NCBI GenBank assembly: GCA_041666945.1
Contig: JBAYFY010000001.1
Span: 55,813-119,812, forward strand
Reading direction: 5' to 3'
From: Candidatus Buchananbacteria bacterium
Lineage (GTDB): Bacteria; Patescibacteriota; Patescibacteriia; 2-01-FULL-39-33
DNA length: 64,000 nucleotides
Under the pieces are notes generated by a model that saw only the letters and a program-made list of their open reading frames with translations, did no database searches and was not told the origin of the DNA. A program made the translations under genes and the position numbers. This document shows, one piece after another, positions 1,816-57,083 of the stretch (its first letter is position 1; the number at the start of each line of letters is the position of its first letter).

Positions 1816-2904
1816 TTAGATTTTGATATAATTTCCTCCGCCGACGTCTTTTACCAGTCCTTTTATGGACATCATCATAAGCAAAGACGATAAGGCATTG
1901 ATTCTAATATTACATACCTGGACGATTTTGTCAAGGTGAAGCGGTTCGGCGGAGAGATATCCCAAGATTTCCTTTTCCAATTCCGTCGGCTGGCTTTCTT
2001 CGGCGATCGCCGTTATTTGAGGCAACTTTTGCCAACCGTATTCTTCAATAATATCCGCGGCGTCGCTTACGGGTTTAGCTCCTTTTTTGATTAGATTGTT
2101 GGTACCTGCGGAGCAAGAACTGAAAATATTTCCGGGTACGGCAAAAACGTCGCGGTTTTGTTCTAAGGCGTAATTGGCGGTAATCAGCGAACCGGAATTT
2201 TCGCCGGCCTCAATAACCAATACGCCCGAAGATAAGCCGGAAATAAGGCGGTTGCGTTGGGGAAAAGTGGCTCGGTTGGCGCTGATGCCCAAAGGGAACT
2301 CCGAAATCAAACAGCCGTCTGATTCCAGGATTTTTTCGGCCAAATGAAAGTTGGTTTTAGGCCCGATATTATCCCAACTCAAATCCGATCCTAACACCGC
2401 CGCCGTTAATCCCCGGTTGTCCAAAGCGGTTTTGTGGGCCAGAGCGTCAATGCCCAAAGCCAAACCGGAAACCACGGTGATTCCCGCTTGAGCAATGCCG
2501 GCGATGATTTTTTCCGCCGCTTGCTGGCCGTAAGCCGTATGTTTTCTGGCGCCGACCACGCCCAGGCAAGAAACGTTTAAACAGCCAATGGCGCCGCGAT
2601 AATACAGTAGCGGGGGAGCGTTATAGATTTCTTTTAGCAAAGCCGGATAATCATCCTCGTCAAAAGTCACGAATTTAACGCCGGCCTGGCCCAGCCGCTT
2701 AAGTTCCTCCTCGGGTTGTATTTCCTGGCGTTTCAAAATAATATCCGTTGCTTCTTTTTCATTAAAACCGGCCGCTAAGAATTCCGGCAGCTTGGCGGTC
2801 CAAGCGTCTTTGGGATCGGGGAAAAAGCCAAGCAGCCGCCTTAAGCGAGCCGGACCCAAAAAATTTATTTGTGACAGGGCTATGAGATATGACGCGTTAA
2901 GCAT
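1816..2904 (-). CDS. dprA: DNA processing protein DprA (Smf), a natural-transformation mediator
   Basis: 362-aa ORF. Rossmann-like core GVVGARKHTAYGQ...VVSGLALGIDALAHKTAL...VLGSDLS...LISEFPLG...FPQRNRLISGLS...VIEAGENSGSLITA...RDVFAVPG is typical of the DprA family. Confidence 0.88.
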   Translation of the reverse strand: MLNASYLIALSQINFLGPARLRRLLGFFPDPKDAWTAKLPEFLAAGFNEKEATDIILKRQEIQPEEELKRLGQAGVKFVTFDEDDYPALLKEIYNAPPLLYYRGAIGCLNVSCLGVVGARKHTAYGQQAAEKIIAGIAQAGITVVSGLALGIDALAHKTALDNRGLTAAVLGSDLSWDNIGPKTNFHLAEKILESDGCLISEFPLGISANRATFPQRNRLISGLSSGVLVIEAGENSGSLITANYALEQNRDVFAVPGNIFSSCSAGTNNLIKKGAKPVSDAADIIEEYGWQKLPQITAIAEESQPTELEKEILGYLSAEPLHLDKIVQVCNIRINALSSLLMMMSIKGLVKDVGGGNYIKI

Positions 2905-2973
2905 GGTTGATGAAAAATTAAAATTGAGAGAACCCTCAATTTTTAATGATTGATTGATTTTTATCCTGAGGCC

Positions 2974-3002
2974 TTGACAGATCTATGACCGTTTGCTAAG
3001 AT
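2974..3002 (+). promoter_or_regulatory. Near-consensus sigma70-like promoter: TTGACA, 17-bp spacer, TAAGAT. No CDS follows on the plus strand.
   Basis: TTGACA at 2974-2979 and TAAGAT at 2997-3002, read directly. See the sRNA finding. Confidence 0.4.
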
Positions 3003-3044
3003 GGGGTCGTAAAACAAAGGGTATTATTTTAAGCGAAGCATCAA

Positions 3045-3139
3045 ATGACGGCCATAATTCTGTCTGTTAACTAGCGGTTATTGTCCCCCTCCTGACAATT
3101 TTCGCTTATTGGCAGACAGTATTATATCCGTCATTTTTT
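3045..3139 (+). terminator. Long imperfect hairpin followed by a T6 run; candidate intrinsic terminator, possibly bidirectional
   Basis: Arm 3045-3066 pairs with arm 3113-3134 (~19 bp of 22). It encloses an inner hairpin TTGTC/GACAA at 3081-3098. TTTTTT at 3134-3139. Confidence 0.5.
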
Positions 3140-3209
3140 ATAAAGCCCCTAAAGCCCAGCTTATAAAATAAACAAACTATCTTTATCGGGAATTTTATGG
3201 ACTTTTGAC

Positions 3210-3776
3210 TTAATTATGCCGGTTCATGGCTCGGGGCAAGCCGTCAATGATAATATCCAAAGCCGCGGCCGCGGCTTTTTTTGTTTGCTCTTTGACTATC
3301 GCCTTCTCGCTCCCGCTCCATTTCATCAGCACATAATCGGCGGTGGGGATTTTATCCAGCAACGGCGTCTTGACGCCCAGGCGGACGCGCGAGAATTTTT
3401 GGCTGGCCAGATGTTCAATGATTGATTTGACGCCGTTATGGCCGCCGGCCGAGGAATCATGCGACAGGCGCAATTTGCCTAAAGCCAAATCCTTGTCATC
3501 GTGGATAATGATGATATTTTCATTTTTGATTTTATAAAACTTAGCCAGCTTGGCCACGCTGGCTCCGGAATTATTCATGTAGGTCAGCGGCCTGGCCGCG
3601 ATGACTTTTTCACCGTTGATCGCGCCGCTGCTGATTTCCGCCAGGAATTTGGCGGATTTTTTCATTTTCGGCAAAACCGCCAACTGTCGAAAATTTTCGA
3701 CAGCCAGCCAGCCCAGATTATGCCAGGTTTGTTCGTATTTTTTGCCGGGATTGCCCAAGCCCGCTATTAAATACAT
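3210..3776 (-). CDS. pth: Peptidyl-tRNA hydrolase
   Basis: MYLIAGLGNPGKKYEQTWHNLGW...NGEKVIAARPLTYMNNSG...GHNGVKSI. The internal Met at 3776 is chosen; the ORF track opens at 3818. Confidence 0.9.
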   Translation of the reverse strand: MYLIAGLGNPGKKYEQTWHNLGWLAVENFRQLAVLPKMKKSAKFLAEISSGAINGEKVIAARPLTYMNNSGASVAKLAKFYKIKNENIIIIHDDKDLALGKLRLSHDSSAGGHNGVKSIIEHLASQKFSRVRLGVKTPLLDKIPTADYVLMKWSGSEKAIVKEQTKKAAAAALDIIIDGLPRAMNRHN

Positions 3777-54954: not shown

Positions 54955-54957
54955 TTT

Positions 54958-55581
54958 ATGAAACGTTTGAAAAATAATCAATCCGGCCAAAGTTTAATCG
55001 AACTCATTGTTTCTATTGCCGTTATTACTATCGGTTTGTTTTCCGTTTGGTTTTTATTTTTAGTTAATTTCAATGCCGTTAAGGAATCGGAGATGCGGAT
55101 TGTGGCGGCTAATTTAGCGCGTGAAGGCGCTGAAATAGTTAAAAATATTCGCGACAGCAATTGGTTGAGAATGGCCAGGAATCTGTCCGATTCTGGAGCC
55201 GCTTCCGGTTTATGGCTTTGGGATAGGGGGTTGGCTGACGGCATTTACACTATTGATTACCGCAATGGTCTGCTTGTTTTAGAAGACGATAACCAGGCCG
55301 GTAAGTTGTTTTTTGATGCCGACGGTTACTATTCATCTTCAGCCACGGCAAATTCCTCGCCTTTTTCCCGCTTGGTAACACTGGCCTCCATTTGCTGTTA
55401 TGATAGCGATCCGGAAGATTTGAAATGCGATGATACGTCCCACTTTTTCACTACAAACGATAGTGGTTGTCCCGCCAATACCATTAAAATCGGTATTAAT
55501 GTAAATTCCCGCGTGACTTGGACTTATTCCGGCCAGCCGCGCCAACTGGTCGTGGAGGATCAATTATTTAATTGGCGCTGA
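54958..55581 (+). CDS. Minor pilin (prepilin-type N-terminus)
   Basis: MKRLKNNQSGQSLIELIVSIAVITIGLF. Confidence 0.78.
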   Translation: MKRLKNNQSGQSLIELIVSIAVITIGLFSVWFLFLVNFNAVKESEMRIVAANLAREGAEIVKNIRDSNWLRMARNLSDSGAASGLWLWDRGLADGIYTIDYRNGLLVLEDDNQAGKLFFDADGYYSSSATANSSPFSRLVTLASICCYDSDPEDLKCDDTSHFFTTNDSGCPANTIKIGINVNSRVTWTYSGQPRQLVVEDQLFNWR

Positions 55582-55584
55582 TTT

Positions 55585-56160
55585 ATGGAATTAAAACCCG
55601 GACAAAATCAAGGATTCACTTTGGTAGAAATGCTGATTACTGCCGGTTTGTTTGCTATTACCTCAATATTGGTTGGCGGAGTTTTTATCAATGTCAATAA
55701 CCTTCAACAGCAGACCGCCAATATGGAAAAATTGCAAAACGACGGCAGATATATGGTGGAAAAGATGGGTCGGGAAATCCGCGGCCGTGAGTTGGATTAT
55801 GAAGCAACTTTGCCGTCCGCCGAGGGCAAGGTGGACCGGCTGGTATTTAAAGAAGACGAAGCCGGAGAAATTTGGCAGTTGGCTTATGATGCGGAAGATT
55901 TTTCCGCCAAAATATTCATCACCACCGTTAATCCTAACAATACCGTTTCCGCTTCACTTAACGCTTCCGATGTGGGCGTAAAGAATCTGCAATTCATCGT
56001 CAGCCCGGTTTTTAATCCTTATGACGATGATACGCTCAATGATTATGTTTATCAGCCGGAGATAACCGTGCTGATGACGCTCTACAACAAAAATACTTCA
56101 AGTCGCCATTATAAAGAACTGCGATTGCAGACCACGATTTCTTCCAAAGTTTATCACTAA
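55585..56160 (+). CDS. Minor pilin (PilW/PilV-like)
   Basis: MELKPGQNQGFTLVEMLITAGLFAITSIL. Confidence 0.78.
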   Translation: MELKPGQNQGFTLVEMLITAGLFAITSILVGGVFINVNNLQQQTANMEKLQNDGRYMVEKMGREIRGRELDYEATLPSAEGKVDRLVFKEDEAGEIWQLAYDAEDFSAKIFITTVNPNNTVSASLNASDVGVKNLQFIVSPVFNPYDDDTLNDYVYQPEITVLMTLYNKNTSSRHYKELRLQTTISSKVYH

Positions 56161-56162
56161 TT

Positions 56163-57083
56163 ATGTTTTATAGGCAACAACAAGATGAACGCGGCGTTAT
56201 TATTGTTTTTACCCTGATACTTTTGGGCGTGCTTTTGTCTATCGCCCTGGGTTTTTTTTATTTTATTCTTTTGGATATCAAAAAGGCGCGGGCTATTGAT
56301 AATTCCACGGTGGCTTATTATGCGGCTGACGCCGGTATTGAGCGTTCCTTGTATATTATCAAAAAGCAGGAAGCCGCTTCCTCCACCTCGGCCTTGCGCG
56401 CCATTTATAATCAAGACGTTTCCGGCGTCGGCGGAGTTTTTTCCCTGACTAACGGCGCCCAATGGGATATTAATGATTCCTCTGATTTTGAAAAGAATTT
56501 TTTTCGCCAACGTTTGTCTAACGGCGAAAGCGTCAAATTGTATTTTCTTAACCGTCAAGGCCAGGATGGCGATCCTAAAAGTTTTGGCTTGACTTGGTAT
56601 GGATCTTTAGGAGCTTCCAACACTTTAAAGATGCAAGTCGCCATCAATCAATTAATGCCTCAACTTTACCAAAACGAACAAACTTCGCCAACCCTGGTTT
56701 ATTATGCCGAGGATAACGTGATTGAGACCGATGATTCGGCTGACGGCGTAACTTTTTGTTATAAATTTCGCGATTGCAATGTTAATAATGTTGTTGACAG
56801 TGACAGTTGCGAGGCCTTAACCAACCCCGTTGACTATGTGGTGGAATTAAAGGCCTTAGGTTCGACAGAATTGGATAATATTGATCGTTTATCGGTTATG
56901 GCTTATTCCGATAGCGATTGTTTGGCTACCTCGACTTACGGCGTAACCAATTTGACCTTAAAATCGCAGGGGATATTCAATAATAACCGACAAATGATCG
57001 TTGCTCACATTCCGCCGCTTAATCCGCTTTCCGGCTTGTTTGGTTTTGTGTTGTTTTCGGAACAGGATATTACGAAAGAATAA
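56163..57083 (+). CDS. PilX-like minor pilin
   Basis: [31 protein letters not shown] is PilX N-domain-like. Confidence 0.7.

Follow-up and report, generated by a model that had tools for sequence, protein, structure and literature searches.

Why do genes for handling DNA stand beside a type IV secretion system (T4SS) and a type IV pilus (T4P) in a 64,000-nt stretch of a Candidatus Buchananbacteria chromosome? The stretch (GenBank assembly GCA_041666945.1, contig JBAYFY010000001.1, positions 55,813 to 119,812; hereafter the window) carries dprA, comFC, recG, radA and ligA together with both machines within 55 kb, and an initial annotation had read the whole as one integrated DNA-acquisition island. 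We find that the region is a core-chromosomal T4SS and T4P supercluster typical of ABY1-type Patescibacteria. Cross-genome synteny places the co-localisation of comF, radA, recG, the T4SS, the T4P and ligA beyond chance, and the conserved set consists of the T4SS, comF, recG/radA, VirB2-like pilin and transglycosylase (SLT) genes, the T4P and ligA.

The 46 open reading frames (ORFs) of the window, tightly packed and mainly on the plus strand, were listed and scanned against Pfam and NCBIfam, and tRNA genes were located with ARAGORN. Every gene that the initial annotation had named was recovered at its place by the profile scans and the ORF listing (Table 1). The 55-kb span represents about 6% of the genome, taking the 958-kb contig of a close relative as the measure. 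The source metagenome-assembled genome appears to be a patescibacterium of ABY1 type, since the VirB4 of the window groups with those of Falkow-, Magasanik- and Uhrbacteria. As another of the three legs of this placement, we take Buchananbacteria to fall within the GTDB class ABY1; our literature check found no explicit statement of 'Buchananbacteria' in that class. The remaining leg is the ABY1 type genome (939 kb, 890 proteins), which carries the NCBI label Falkowbacteria (PMC11809585). Relatives were sampled as one genome per species. At least 581 species have this VirB4 at 70–98% identity, and the best 80 of these VirB4 loci (70–88% identity; Buchanan-, Falkow-, Magasanik-, Uhrbacteria and others) were kept and all window proteins mapped onto them; 61 of the 80 have at least 2 kb downstream and 38 a full 10-kb flank.

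The secretion genes form a single co-directional array (8517-30879, plus strand) with intergenic gaps of 2–70 nt. Its VirB4 is 73–98% identical to proteins of Buchanan- and Falkowbacteria and matches CedB weakly and in part (43 bits, E=1.9e-11, cutoff 700). The TrsD-like protein also matches the N-terminus of VirB4 models, and both it and the PrgI/VirB3-like protein are encoded adjacent to virB4, as in the T4SS of the Patescibacteria clade, a pairing kept in 75–80 of the 80 loci. Two further traits of that clade are present, namely VirB2-like pilins accompanied by a VirB1-like hydrolase, and the lack of a nearby relaxase or coupling protein. Among the 46 ORFs neither Pfam nor NCBIfam gave a match to a relaxase, a VirD4-like coupling protein, VirB11 or an integrase, profile scans of the window returned nothing for the VirB7/VirB9/VirB10 outer-membrane core, and a Walker A check confined the P-loop proteins of the window to Der, VirB4, RecG, RadA and PilB. 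The sole match of the 1079-aa VirB6-like candidate is a weak one, to the conjugation membrane protein pLS20_p028 (E=0.0018). The family of the 469-aa protein (u469) recurs in 66 of the 80 VirB4 loci and is thus a conserved member of the T4SS operon.

Between virB4 and comF lies a gene for a 189-aa protein that has no sequence-level match in PDB, Pfam or NCBIfam and was identified by fold search alone. Using its AlphaFold2 (AF2) model, Foldseek placed at the top the VirB8 domain of PrgL (7AED, E=9e-5), TcpC (3UB1), a Rickettsia VirB8-like protein and CagV. On this predicted fold the protein is a VirB8-like T4SS subunit, and its gene follows virB4 directly in 77/80 loci. The same fold matches rule it out as a competence gene, an identity that we had considered.

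The last gene of the array belongs to the ComF family. It matches PF00156 (E=1e-8) and the zinc ribbon PF18912 (E=2.5e-4); across 40 homologues C26, C29 and C37 never vary and at least 90% retain C40, forming a CxxC...CxxC zinc finger, and the phosphoribosyltransferase motif VDDVxTTG is conserved as well. With its AF2 model (pLDDT 91.5) the best Foldseek match is Helicobacter pylori ComFC (7P0H; E=4.1e-11, TMq 0.63, 210 columns), the runner-up being the best true phosphoribosyltransferase, an APRT (E=1.5e-4). TIGR00201 is the best-scoring family at 96.5 bits, still under its trusted cutoff of 233.55, and homologues are named 'ComF family protein' in several sources. By sequence and modelled fold we assign the gene to the ComF/ComFC family; its role in ssDNA (single-stranded DNA) binding and transformation is putative. 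The gene overlaps the 3' end of the VirB8-like gene by 31 nt if it starts at the ATG at 30199, or by 10 nt if at 30220. Across relatives this junction has an estimated gap of at most 30 nt in 25 of 39 loci, with overlapping genes in 14, and the ComF proteins are 30–40% identical across the relative set. The co-transcription of comFC with VirB4 that had been proposed fits their place in one co-directional array, with the correction that the two are not adjacent, the 189-aa VirB8-like gene standing between them.

Synteny around VirB4 carries the finding. On the same strand after the VirB8-like gene, 38 of the 61 loci have comF, 10 have radA, nine have a pilin or propeller gene (leading toward SLT-radA) and four have none of these. 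At least one of comF, recG and radA is present in 36/38 full-flank loci and all three in 10/38; radA and recG occur together in 20/38, recG being found in every locus that bears radA (20/20). Loci with the comF arrangement occur all over the VirB4 tree, those with the pilin-first arrangement form one clade and those with the radA-first arrangement two to three groups. Because it spans the whole tree, the order VirB4-VirB8-like-comF is ancestral, and the alternatives differ from it by simple inversion of the comF...radA or the comF...propeller block.

Two further sets of loci were anchored on other genes. Each locus of a comF-anchored set of six has VirB4, a VirB2-like pilin array or a T4P operon no more than 10 kb away. 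Two of these loci (L084, L085) retain PrgI-TrsD-VirB4-VirB8-comF and have entirely different downstream genes (SUF genes; BipA), in three comF closes a SpoIID-...-SmpB-comF operon divergent from a VirB2-like pilin array, and in one comF lies 3 kb from a divergent T4P operon. The PilM-anchored set comprised metagenome contigs. Divergently upstream of pilM, in lineages of 41–48% PilM identity, we found comF alone (L137, L144, L149), the propeller gene then comF (L153, L155, L161, L162, the genes overlapping in L162), or the propeller gene, DsbA or nothing, and radA (L126, L130, L154), with recG and the gene for a 166-aa protein in addition in L126.

Unbiased clustering of the 2062 ORFs of the fetched loci, from which three loci re-reading the window's own contig were excluded, gave the same picture. 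Beyond T4SS parts the recurrent neighbours of VirB4 are ComF (48 loci), RecG (30), the 166-aa protein (27), RadA (25), a DsbA-like protein (23), pilins and the propeller, and ComF, RecG and RadA are the sole recurrent cytoplasmic DNA-handling proteins among them. Other annotated recurrent families are S-adenosylmethionine (SAM)-cycle enzymes (8–9 loci) and small proteins resembling those of 23S-rRNA intervening sequences (9–11 loci). The initial annotation had named a lack of conserved synteny as a ground for giving up its claim; the linkage of comF, radA and recG to the T4SS is conserved class-wide, through rearrangements and with different flanks.

The second operon that matters here runs on the minus strand and ends in radA. 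RadA has its zinc ribbon, RecA-like ATPase and Lon-like C-terminal domain together with an equivalog-level score, and its gene converges with recG with a 9-nt overlap, as read from the junction sequence. The gap from the stop of the pilin/SLT gene to the radA ATG is exactly 6 nt, confirming at sequence level the spacing reported earlier, and a pilin/SLT gene lies directly 5' of radA on the same strand in 7/7 loci where both were detected. The pilin/SLT protein itself (403 aa) is a T4SS_pilin domain fused to an SLT domain (VirB1-like lytic transglycosylase, PF01464), encoded downstream of the 349-aa pilin gene. The 412-aa propeller protein gave a partial match to TIGR02800, its L126 orthologue has PD40, and its family (u412) stands divergent from pilM in many loci. 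The strongest promoter-like sites between 24 and 41 kb lie at the head of the minus-strand operon (39897-39869), 5' of the 885-aa gene (40085-40113) and after the comF stop, before tRNA-Ser (30891-30920), and offer weak evidence, from sequence, in agreement with the proposed transcription units; a terminator scan was not above shuffled expectation.

A complete T4P locus had been claimed and was found, with PilM, PilB, a PilT-like protein, PilC, a prepilin peptidase and pilins. In full, the operon encodes PilM, three single-transmembrane (TM) PilN/O-like proteins, PilB, a receiver-domain protein, the PilT-like ATPase, PilC, the major pilin, the prepilin peptidase, minor pilins and a 306-aa protein. 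PilM, PilB, PilC, the prepilin peptidase and the N-methyl pilins are the content of a type IVa-like pilus: PilM exceeds the cutoff of TIGR01175, and the scores of PilB and PilC are good, if below their equivalog cutoffs. The PilT-like ATPase (50267-51331) reaches 291 bits against TIGR01420 (cutoff 319). The family of the 566-aa protein (u566) stands immediately 5' of pilM in 44 loci. ligA follows the u306-like last pilus gene in 5/5 loci whose flank reaches that far, and in the window is itself followed by DUF1003 and glycosyltransferase genes.

The dprA gene, which the initial annotation had counted among the co-localised set, proved to be a bystander. DprA has the DNA_processg_A domain, a winged helix and an equivalog-level score, and its gene sits in an ordinary der-pth-dprA-topA block, 25 kb from VirB4 in the window. 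It lies within 10 kb of VirB4 in only one of the 80 relatives (L016), where the entire block has relocated together. As a candidate member of the cluster dprA was ruled out by this count and by the lack of a recurrent DprA cluster in 166 neighbourhoods. The complete TopA, seen in L166, has 728 aa with Toprim and Topoisom_bac domains. No comEC or comEA was found in about 10 kb past each window edge.

Table 1. Features of the window, in positions of the 64,000-nt stretch.
Feature	Position	Strand	Basis and remarks
topA, 3' part beyond window edge	1..1770	-	translation; housekeeping partner of dprA, outside the conserved neighbourhood
dprA	1816-2904	-	TIGR00732 247 bits (cutoff 191); PF02481 and PF17782
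pth	3210-3818	-	block der-pth-dprA-topA
der	3791-5197	-	block der-pth-dprA-topA
355-aa protein with TSP3-like repeats and giant 3881-aa surface protein (CBM_4_9)	8517..21235	+	Pfam; heads the T4SS array
1079-aa polytopic membrane protein, candidate VirB6-like	21266..24505	+	about 9 TM predicted; conserved 5' of VirB4, 28 loci
172-aa and 469-aa soluble proteins	24509..26507	+	no family matches
PrgI/VirB3-like membrane protein	26510..26953	+	PF12666 E=2.9e-8; 72-76/80 loci
TrsD / VirB4 N-terminal-domain-like	27002..27685	+	NF041427 E=5.8e-11; 80/80 loci
VirB4 ATPase, monoderm CD1110/MPF-FATA type	27690..29594	+	NF045971 356 bits (cutoff 325); Walker A GAGKS
VirB8/PrgL-like bitopic protein, 189 aa, N-terminal TM and NTF2-like domain (predicted)	29660..30229	+	AF2 pLDDT 80
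comFC (ComF family), terminal gene of the T4SS array	30199..30879 (or ATG 30220)	+	Pribosyltran and zinc ribbon
tRNA-Ser(GCU), tRNA-Ser(UGA), 166-aa 2-TM protein (31538-32038), tRNA-Arg(GCG)	30938..32193	+	ARAGORN for tRNAs
recG	32236..34314	+	NF008168 809 bits (cutoff 718); above three equivalog cutoffs
radA/sms, terminal gene of the pilin/SLT operon	34306..35637	-	TIGR00416 533 bits (cutoff 403); Walker A GIGKS
two VirB2-like T4SS pilin-domain proteins, 349 aa and 403 aa	35644..37927	-	PF18895 in both
412-aa membrane-anchored beta-propeller (TolB/PD40-like) and 220-aa membrane protein	37924..39842	-	start of the minus-strand operon
885-aa and 566-aa secreted/membrane-anchored proteins, lead the T4P operon	40277..44618	+	no family matches
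T4P operon	44698..57083	+	Pfam, NCBIfam; gene order kept in relatives
ligA	57086..59083	+	NF005932 829 bits; 2 nt past the last pilus-operon gene

The other features of the window and its relatives can be told briefly. Composition is flat and GC skew positive throughout the window, and genes for a RelA/SpoT-like protein, ParB and ParA lie about 2–5 kb past its left edge (L166 13517-16715; about 2.4–5.6 kb beyond dprA in L166). Given these neighbours and the skew, the region probably belongs to the leading strand close to the replication origin, in agreement with the reported trend for T4SS loci of Patescibacteria to be found in the vicinity of oriC. At the head of the T4SS array, the 355-aa and 3881-aa genes are separated from their neighbours by 5 and 30 nt. 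The 3881-aa protein (9590-21235) has CBM_4_9 and endotoxin-C-like domains and is encoded immediately 5' of the VirB6-like gene, and in L084, a comF-anchored relative, the equivalent position is taken by a 2535-aa CBM_4_9 protein (L084 1-39). It is a candidate T4SS-linked adhesin or substrate; PrgB-type adhesins were not found in Patescibacteria in a 2025 survey (PMC12102498). Also 5' of the T4SS operon, some lineages have SAM-cycle genes for AdoHcy hydrolase, MetK and a PfkB-family kinase (8–9 loci each; L026 1881-3158, L029 3017-4186, L054 2176-3153).

A small DUF5652 ORF and three tRNA genes lie between comF and recG (30938-32193). The 166-aa protein of this interval has two TM helices and no family, accompanies comF/recG in 27/80 VirB4 loci and also adjoins comF in L083; its weak match to a ComEC-like model (E=0.0056, 15 bits, cutoff 150) was judged to be noise of TM composition. 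The possibility that recG is a mis-called ComFA helicase was ruled out by its RecG wedge domain and the equivalog cutoffs that it passes. The TolB/PD40-like propeller recurs beside the VirB2-like pilin operon and on the divergent side of the T4P in 29 loci (window 37924-39162; L162 8633-9877; L126 6867-8132). In the two loci checked, L050 (4723-5532) and L126 (6064-6801), a gene for a DsbA-like thioredoxin separates radA from the VirB8-like or propeller gene, and the window has no copy there. In the T4P operon the receiver-domain gene (49884-50264) lies directly 5' of the PilT-like gene wherever it was detected, and it went undetected in some loci, L152 and L158 among them. In three comF-anchored loci from another Patescibacterial lineage (L082 2410-10669, L083 4595-10675, L169 4760-10606) a conserved array runs SpoIID, an approximately 200-aa protein, DUF5657, a 611–634-aa protein, SmpB and finally comF, and diverges from two to eight VirB2-like T4SS_pilin genes. 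No DUF5657 was called in L083, where smpB also has the opposite orientation; L082 and L169 have the array on a single strand. The 631–634-aa proteins near comF in L082 and L083 were considered as VirB4 and ruled out by tblastn.

The core of this co-localisation was already published in 2025, and the window adds detail, not a new phenomenon. Quiñonero-Coronel et al. 2025 (Microb Genom 11:001409; PMC12102498) surveyed virB4 neighbourhoods of ±20 coding sequences across Patescibacteria and described a component set of MPF-FATA VirB4, TrsD, PrgI/VirB3, VirB6, VirB8 (almost solely in ABY1) and VirB2-like PF18895 pilins, with relaxases rare in the phylum and type IV coupling proteins seldom nearby. 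They found ABY1 T4SS loci commonly associated with comF, recG and radA and suggested functional coordination. The window has this ABY1-type context, with all three genes around virB4. It shares with the ABY1-class systems (PMC12102498) the VirB4 ancestry, TrsD, PrgI/VirB3, the VirB8-like protein, with a candidate for the VirB6-like one, the PF18895 pilins and the lack of a relaxase and nearby coupling protein, and is one further instance with no essential difference. Our additions are incremental: the VirB8-like identity, the comF overlap, radA as terminal gene behind pilin and SLT, the arrangement classes and how often each occurs, the association of comF and radA with T4P operons and pilin arrays, and that of ligA with the T4P.

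Another close system is that of Southlakia epibionticum and other Saccharibacteria. Natural transformation there depends on the T4P and ComEC, and epibiotic growth requires both the T4SS and the T4P, whereas ComEC, ComF and DprA are not fitness genes (Wang et al. 2023 Cell; PMC10633639). Southlakia has a homologous T4SS core, VirB2-like pilins and a T4P; it is epibiotic, lacks nucleotide synthesis and has ComEC, ComFC and DprA. Linkage of comF, radA and recG to virB4 is unreported for its class, whereas the window has comF and radA within T4SS operons. Nucleotide synthesis is likewise missing from ABY1 genomes, and PilB/C/M/T, ComEC, Ssb and RecA are encoded in them (PMC11809585). The earlier suggestion that the genes suit an organism without nucleotide biosynthesis agrees with the organism being a patescibacterium, a group reported to lack it (PMC11809585). 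The competence systems of Bacillus and Streptococcus share a T4P-like filament and the ComFC, DprA and RadA chain of ssDNA handling. They have a comFA-comFC pair, whereas the comFC of the window has no adjacent ComFA helicase gene and follows VirB4 and the VirB8-like gene instead, and they use a ComG pseudopilus where the window encodes a full T4aP-like pilus with PilM and a PilT-like protein.

What might the conserved layout do? It may serve the co-expression of proteins that receive and recombine ssDNA with the surface machines, a reading to which we give roughly even odds (about 0.5). The T4SS array ends in comFC and the opposite-strand propeller/pilin/transglycosylase operon in radA, with recG between them, and the T4P operon, diverging from the minus-strand operon, ends in ligA. 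The proteins that take over incoming ssDNA would thereby be made together with the machines for host contact and uptake, acting in the order ComFC, then DprA and RecA encoded elsewhere, RadA for branch migration, RecG and LigA. DNA itself would most probably enter by the canonical T4P-ComEC route, as in Saccharibacteria.

Several points weigh against such a functional arrangement. Co-transcription and co-regulation are suggested by gene spacing only, radA, recG and ligA are universal housekeeping genes, comF lies outside the VirB4 operon in about 38% of loci, and no cluster of ComEC, ComEA, DprA or RecA reaches six loci among the 166 neighbourhoods. Since the alternative arrangements arose by inversion, much of the conservation through rearrangement amounts to neighbours being kept together by inversion; the arrangement classes are mostly clade-specific and explained by a few inversions of one block, and much of the conservation may be inherited synteny. 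In other Patescibacteria classes virB4 lies near dnaA/dnaN, away from comF (PMC12102498). The Southlakia genetics would, by analogy, argue against a strict single DNA-acquisition machine (PMC10633639). With ComEC, ComF and DprA dispensable and the T4SS and T4P essential there, the main job of the machines, on that precedent, is not transformation (PMC10633639; PMC12857230), and a 2025 review holds that the essential roles of T4SS and T4P cannot hinge on ComEC and speculates that material from the host is taken up through the T4SS pilus (PMC12857230). Finally, the Walker A lysine of the PilT-like ATPase is replaced by arginine (GAFGSGRTST). GxxGSGR[ST] is present in 21/21 relatives of at least 52% identity and in 4/7 at 34–40% (the other three had no motif match), the canonical lysine appearing only in weak matches of 23–29%. 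The protein may be a regulated or non-canonical retraction ATPase, and the substitution would question classical retraction-driven uptake.

Much of this would also follow if comF, recG, radA and ligA had come to lie beside the T4SS and T4P in an ABY1 ancestor and been kept there passively, with occasional inversions and no functional coupling. We consider such inherited synteny a serious rival, though less likely than the co-expression reading. The arrangement classes map to few clades and interconvert through inversions that break at the VirB8-like/comF junction, the association is specific to the class (PMC12102498), the DNA genes involved have housekeeping roles, and ComF and DprA are dispensable where the T4SS is not (PMC10633639). 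Passive retention fits poorly with the persistence of VirB4-VirB8-comF in L084 and L085 despite total replacement of what lies downstream, with the overlaps or short gaps at the VirB8-like/comF junction in 25 of 39 loci, and with a ComF divergence that implies adjacency surviving for long. After rearrangement, moreover, radA from the same gene set fills the operon-terminal place on the same strand, and where comF and radA are not beside VirB4 they independently adjoin T4P operons or VirB2-like pilin arrays. A mobile origin, in which the T4SS and the DNA-processing genes arrived together on an integrative conjugative element, since decayed, or on a genomic island, can draw on the monoderm conjugation type (MPF-FATA) of the T4SS (PMC12102498) and on the three tRNA genes inside the region. 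It is effectively refuted: the 46 ORFs gave no integrase, relaxase, coupling-protein or replication-gene match, composition shows no break, VirB4 is chromosomal and 70–98% identical in hundreds of species, and the surroundings are housekeeping genes with parAB close by. The lack of relaxase, coupling protein and integrase thus marks core chromosome rather than a mobile island, and of the integrated island first proposed the conserved linkage of comF, radA and recG to the T4SS stands, whereas dprA falls outside it and the island itself is gone.

A bolder account makes the T4SS itself a contact-dependent channel for DNA import, the monoderm counterpart of Helicobacter ComB and archaeal Ced, with VirB4 as motor, ComFC as first ssDNA acceptor and RadA made together with the VirB2-like pilus; we hold it to be improbable. 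The window has no relaxase, VirD4-like coupling protein or second P-loop ATPase of such a system, and relaxases are rare phylum-wide (PMC12102498); the missing relaxase and coupling protein make a role in export or conjugation unlikely. Sequence further suggests, from the overlap, translational coupling of comF with the genes for the inner-membrane T4SS proteins and, from the spacing (7/7 loci), coupling of radA with the pilin/SLT genes, VirB4 has its faint similarity to CedB, far under cutoff, and T4SS-mediated DNA uptake has precedents in ComB and Ced (PMC12857230). The H. pylori ComB system, like that of the window, is a T4SS without relaxase or VirD4; it is linked to transformation with ComFC acting downstream, and the window ComF has the same fold as H. 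pylori ComFC. To our knowledge, H. pylori comFC lies outside the comB operons. ComB is diderm with a VirB7/9/10 outer-membrane core, whereas the system of the window is of monoderm type and its DNA import putative. Crenarchaeal Ced resembles it in using a VirB4/HerA-like ATPase for DNA import alongside a type IV pilus; the VirB4-CedB match is partial, however, no CedA-like proteins were identified, and the phylogenetic origins are separate. The case for an import channel is circumstantial throughout. ComB brings DNA to the periplasm only and still needs ComEC, transformation in Southlakia needs ComEC while its T4SS is essential independently of ComEC, ComF and DprA (PMC10633639), and the comF link is limited to ABY1-type lineages and gone from the operon in more than one third of them. 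As an equally long shot, the ABY1 T4SS might work by reverse conjugation, pulling DNA from or off the host through the VirB2-like pilus and a VirB3/4/6/8 complex, with VirB4 replacing the ComFA motor and ComFC as docking acceptor passing ssDNA to DprA/RecA and RadA. If true, it would be the third independently evolved T4SS-based DNA importer after ComB and Ced, and a nucleotide-scavenging route for organisms unable to make nucleotides.

The layout bears on what the chromosomal T4SS that is widespread in Patescibacteria does, a machine that is essential in the one species tested and lacks conjugation parts. The ABY1 layout is the clearest genomic hint that ties this T4SS to the handling of incoming DNA, at least in the ABY1 class, and it predicts co-expression of these genes, contact of ComFC with VirB4 or the VirB8-like protein, and DNA uptake that depends on virB4.

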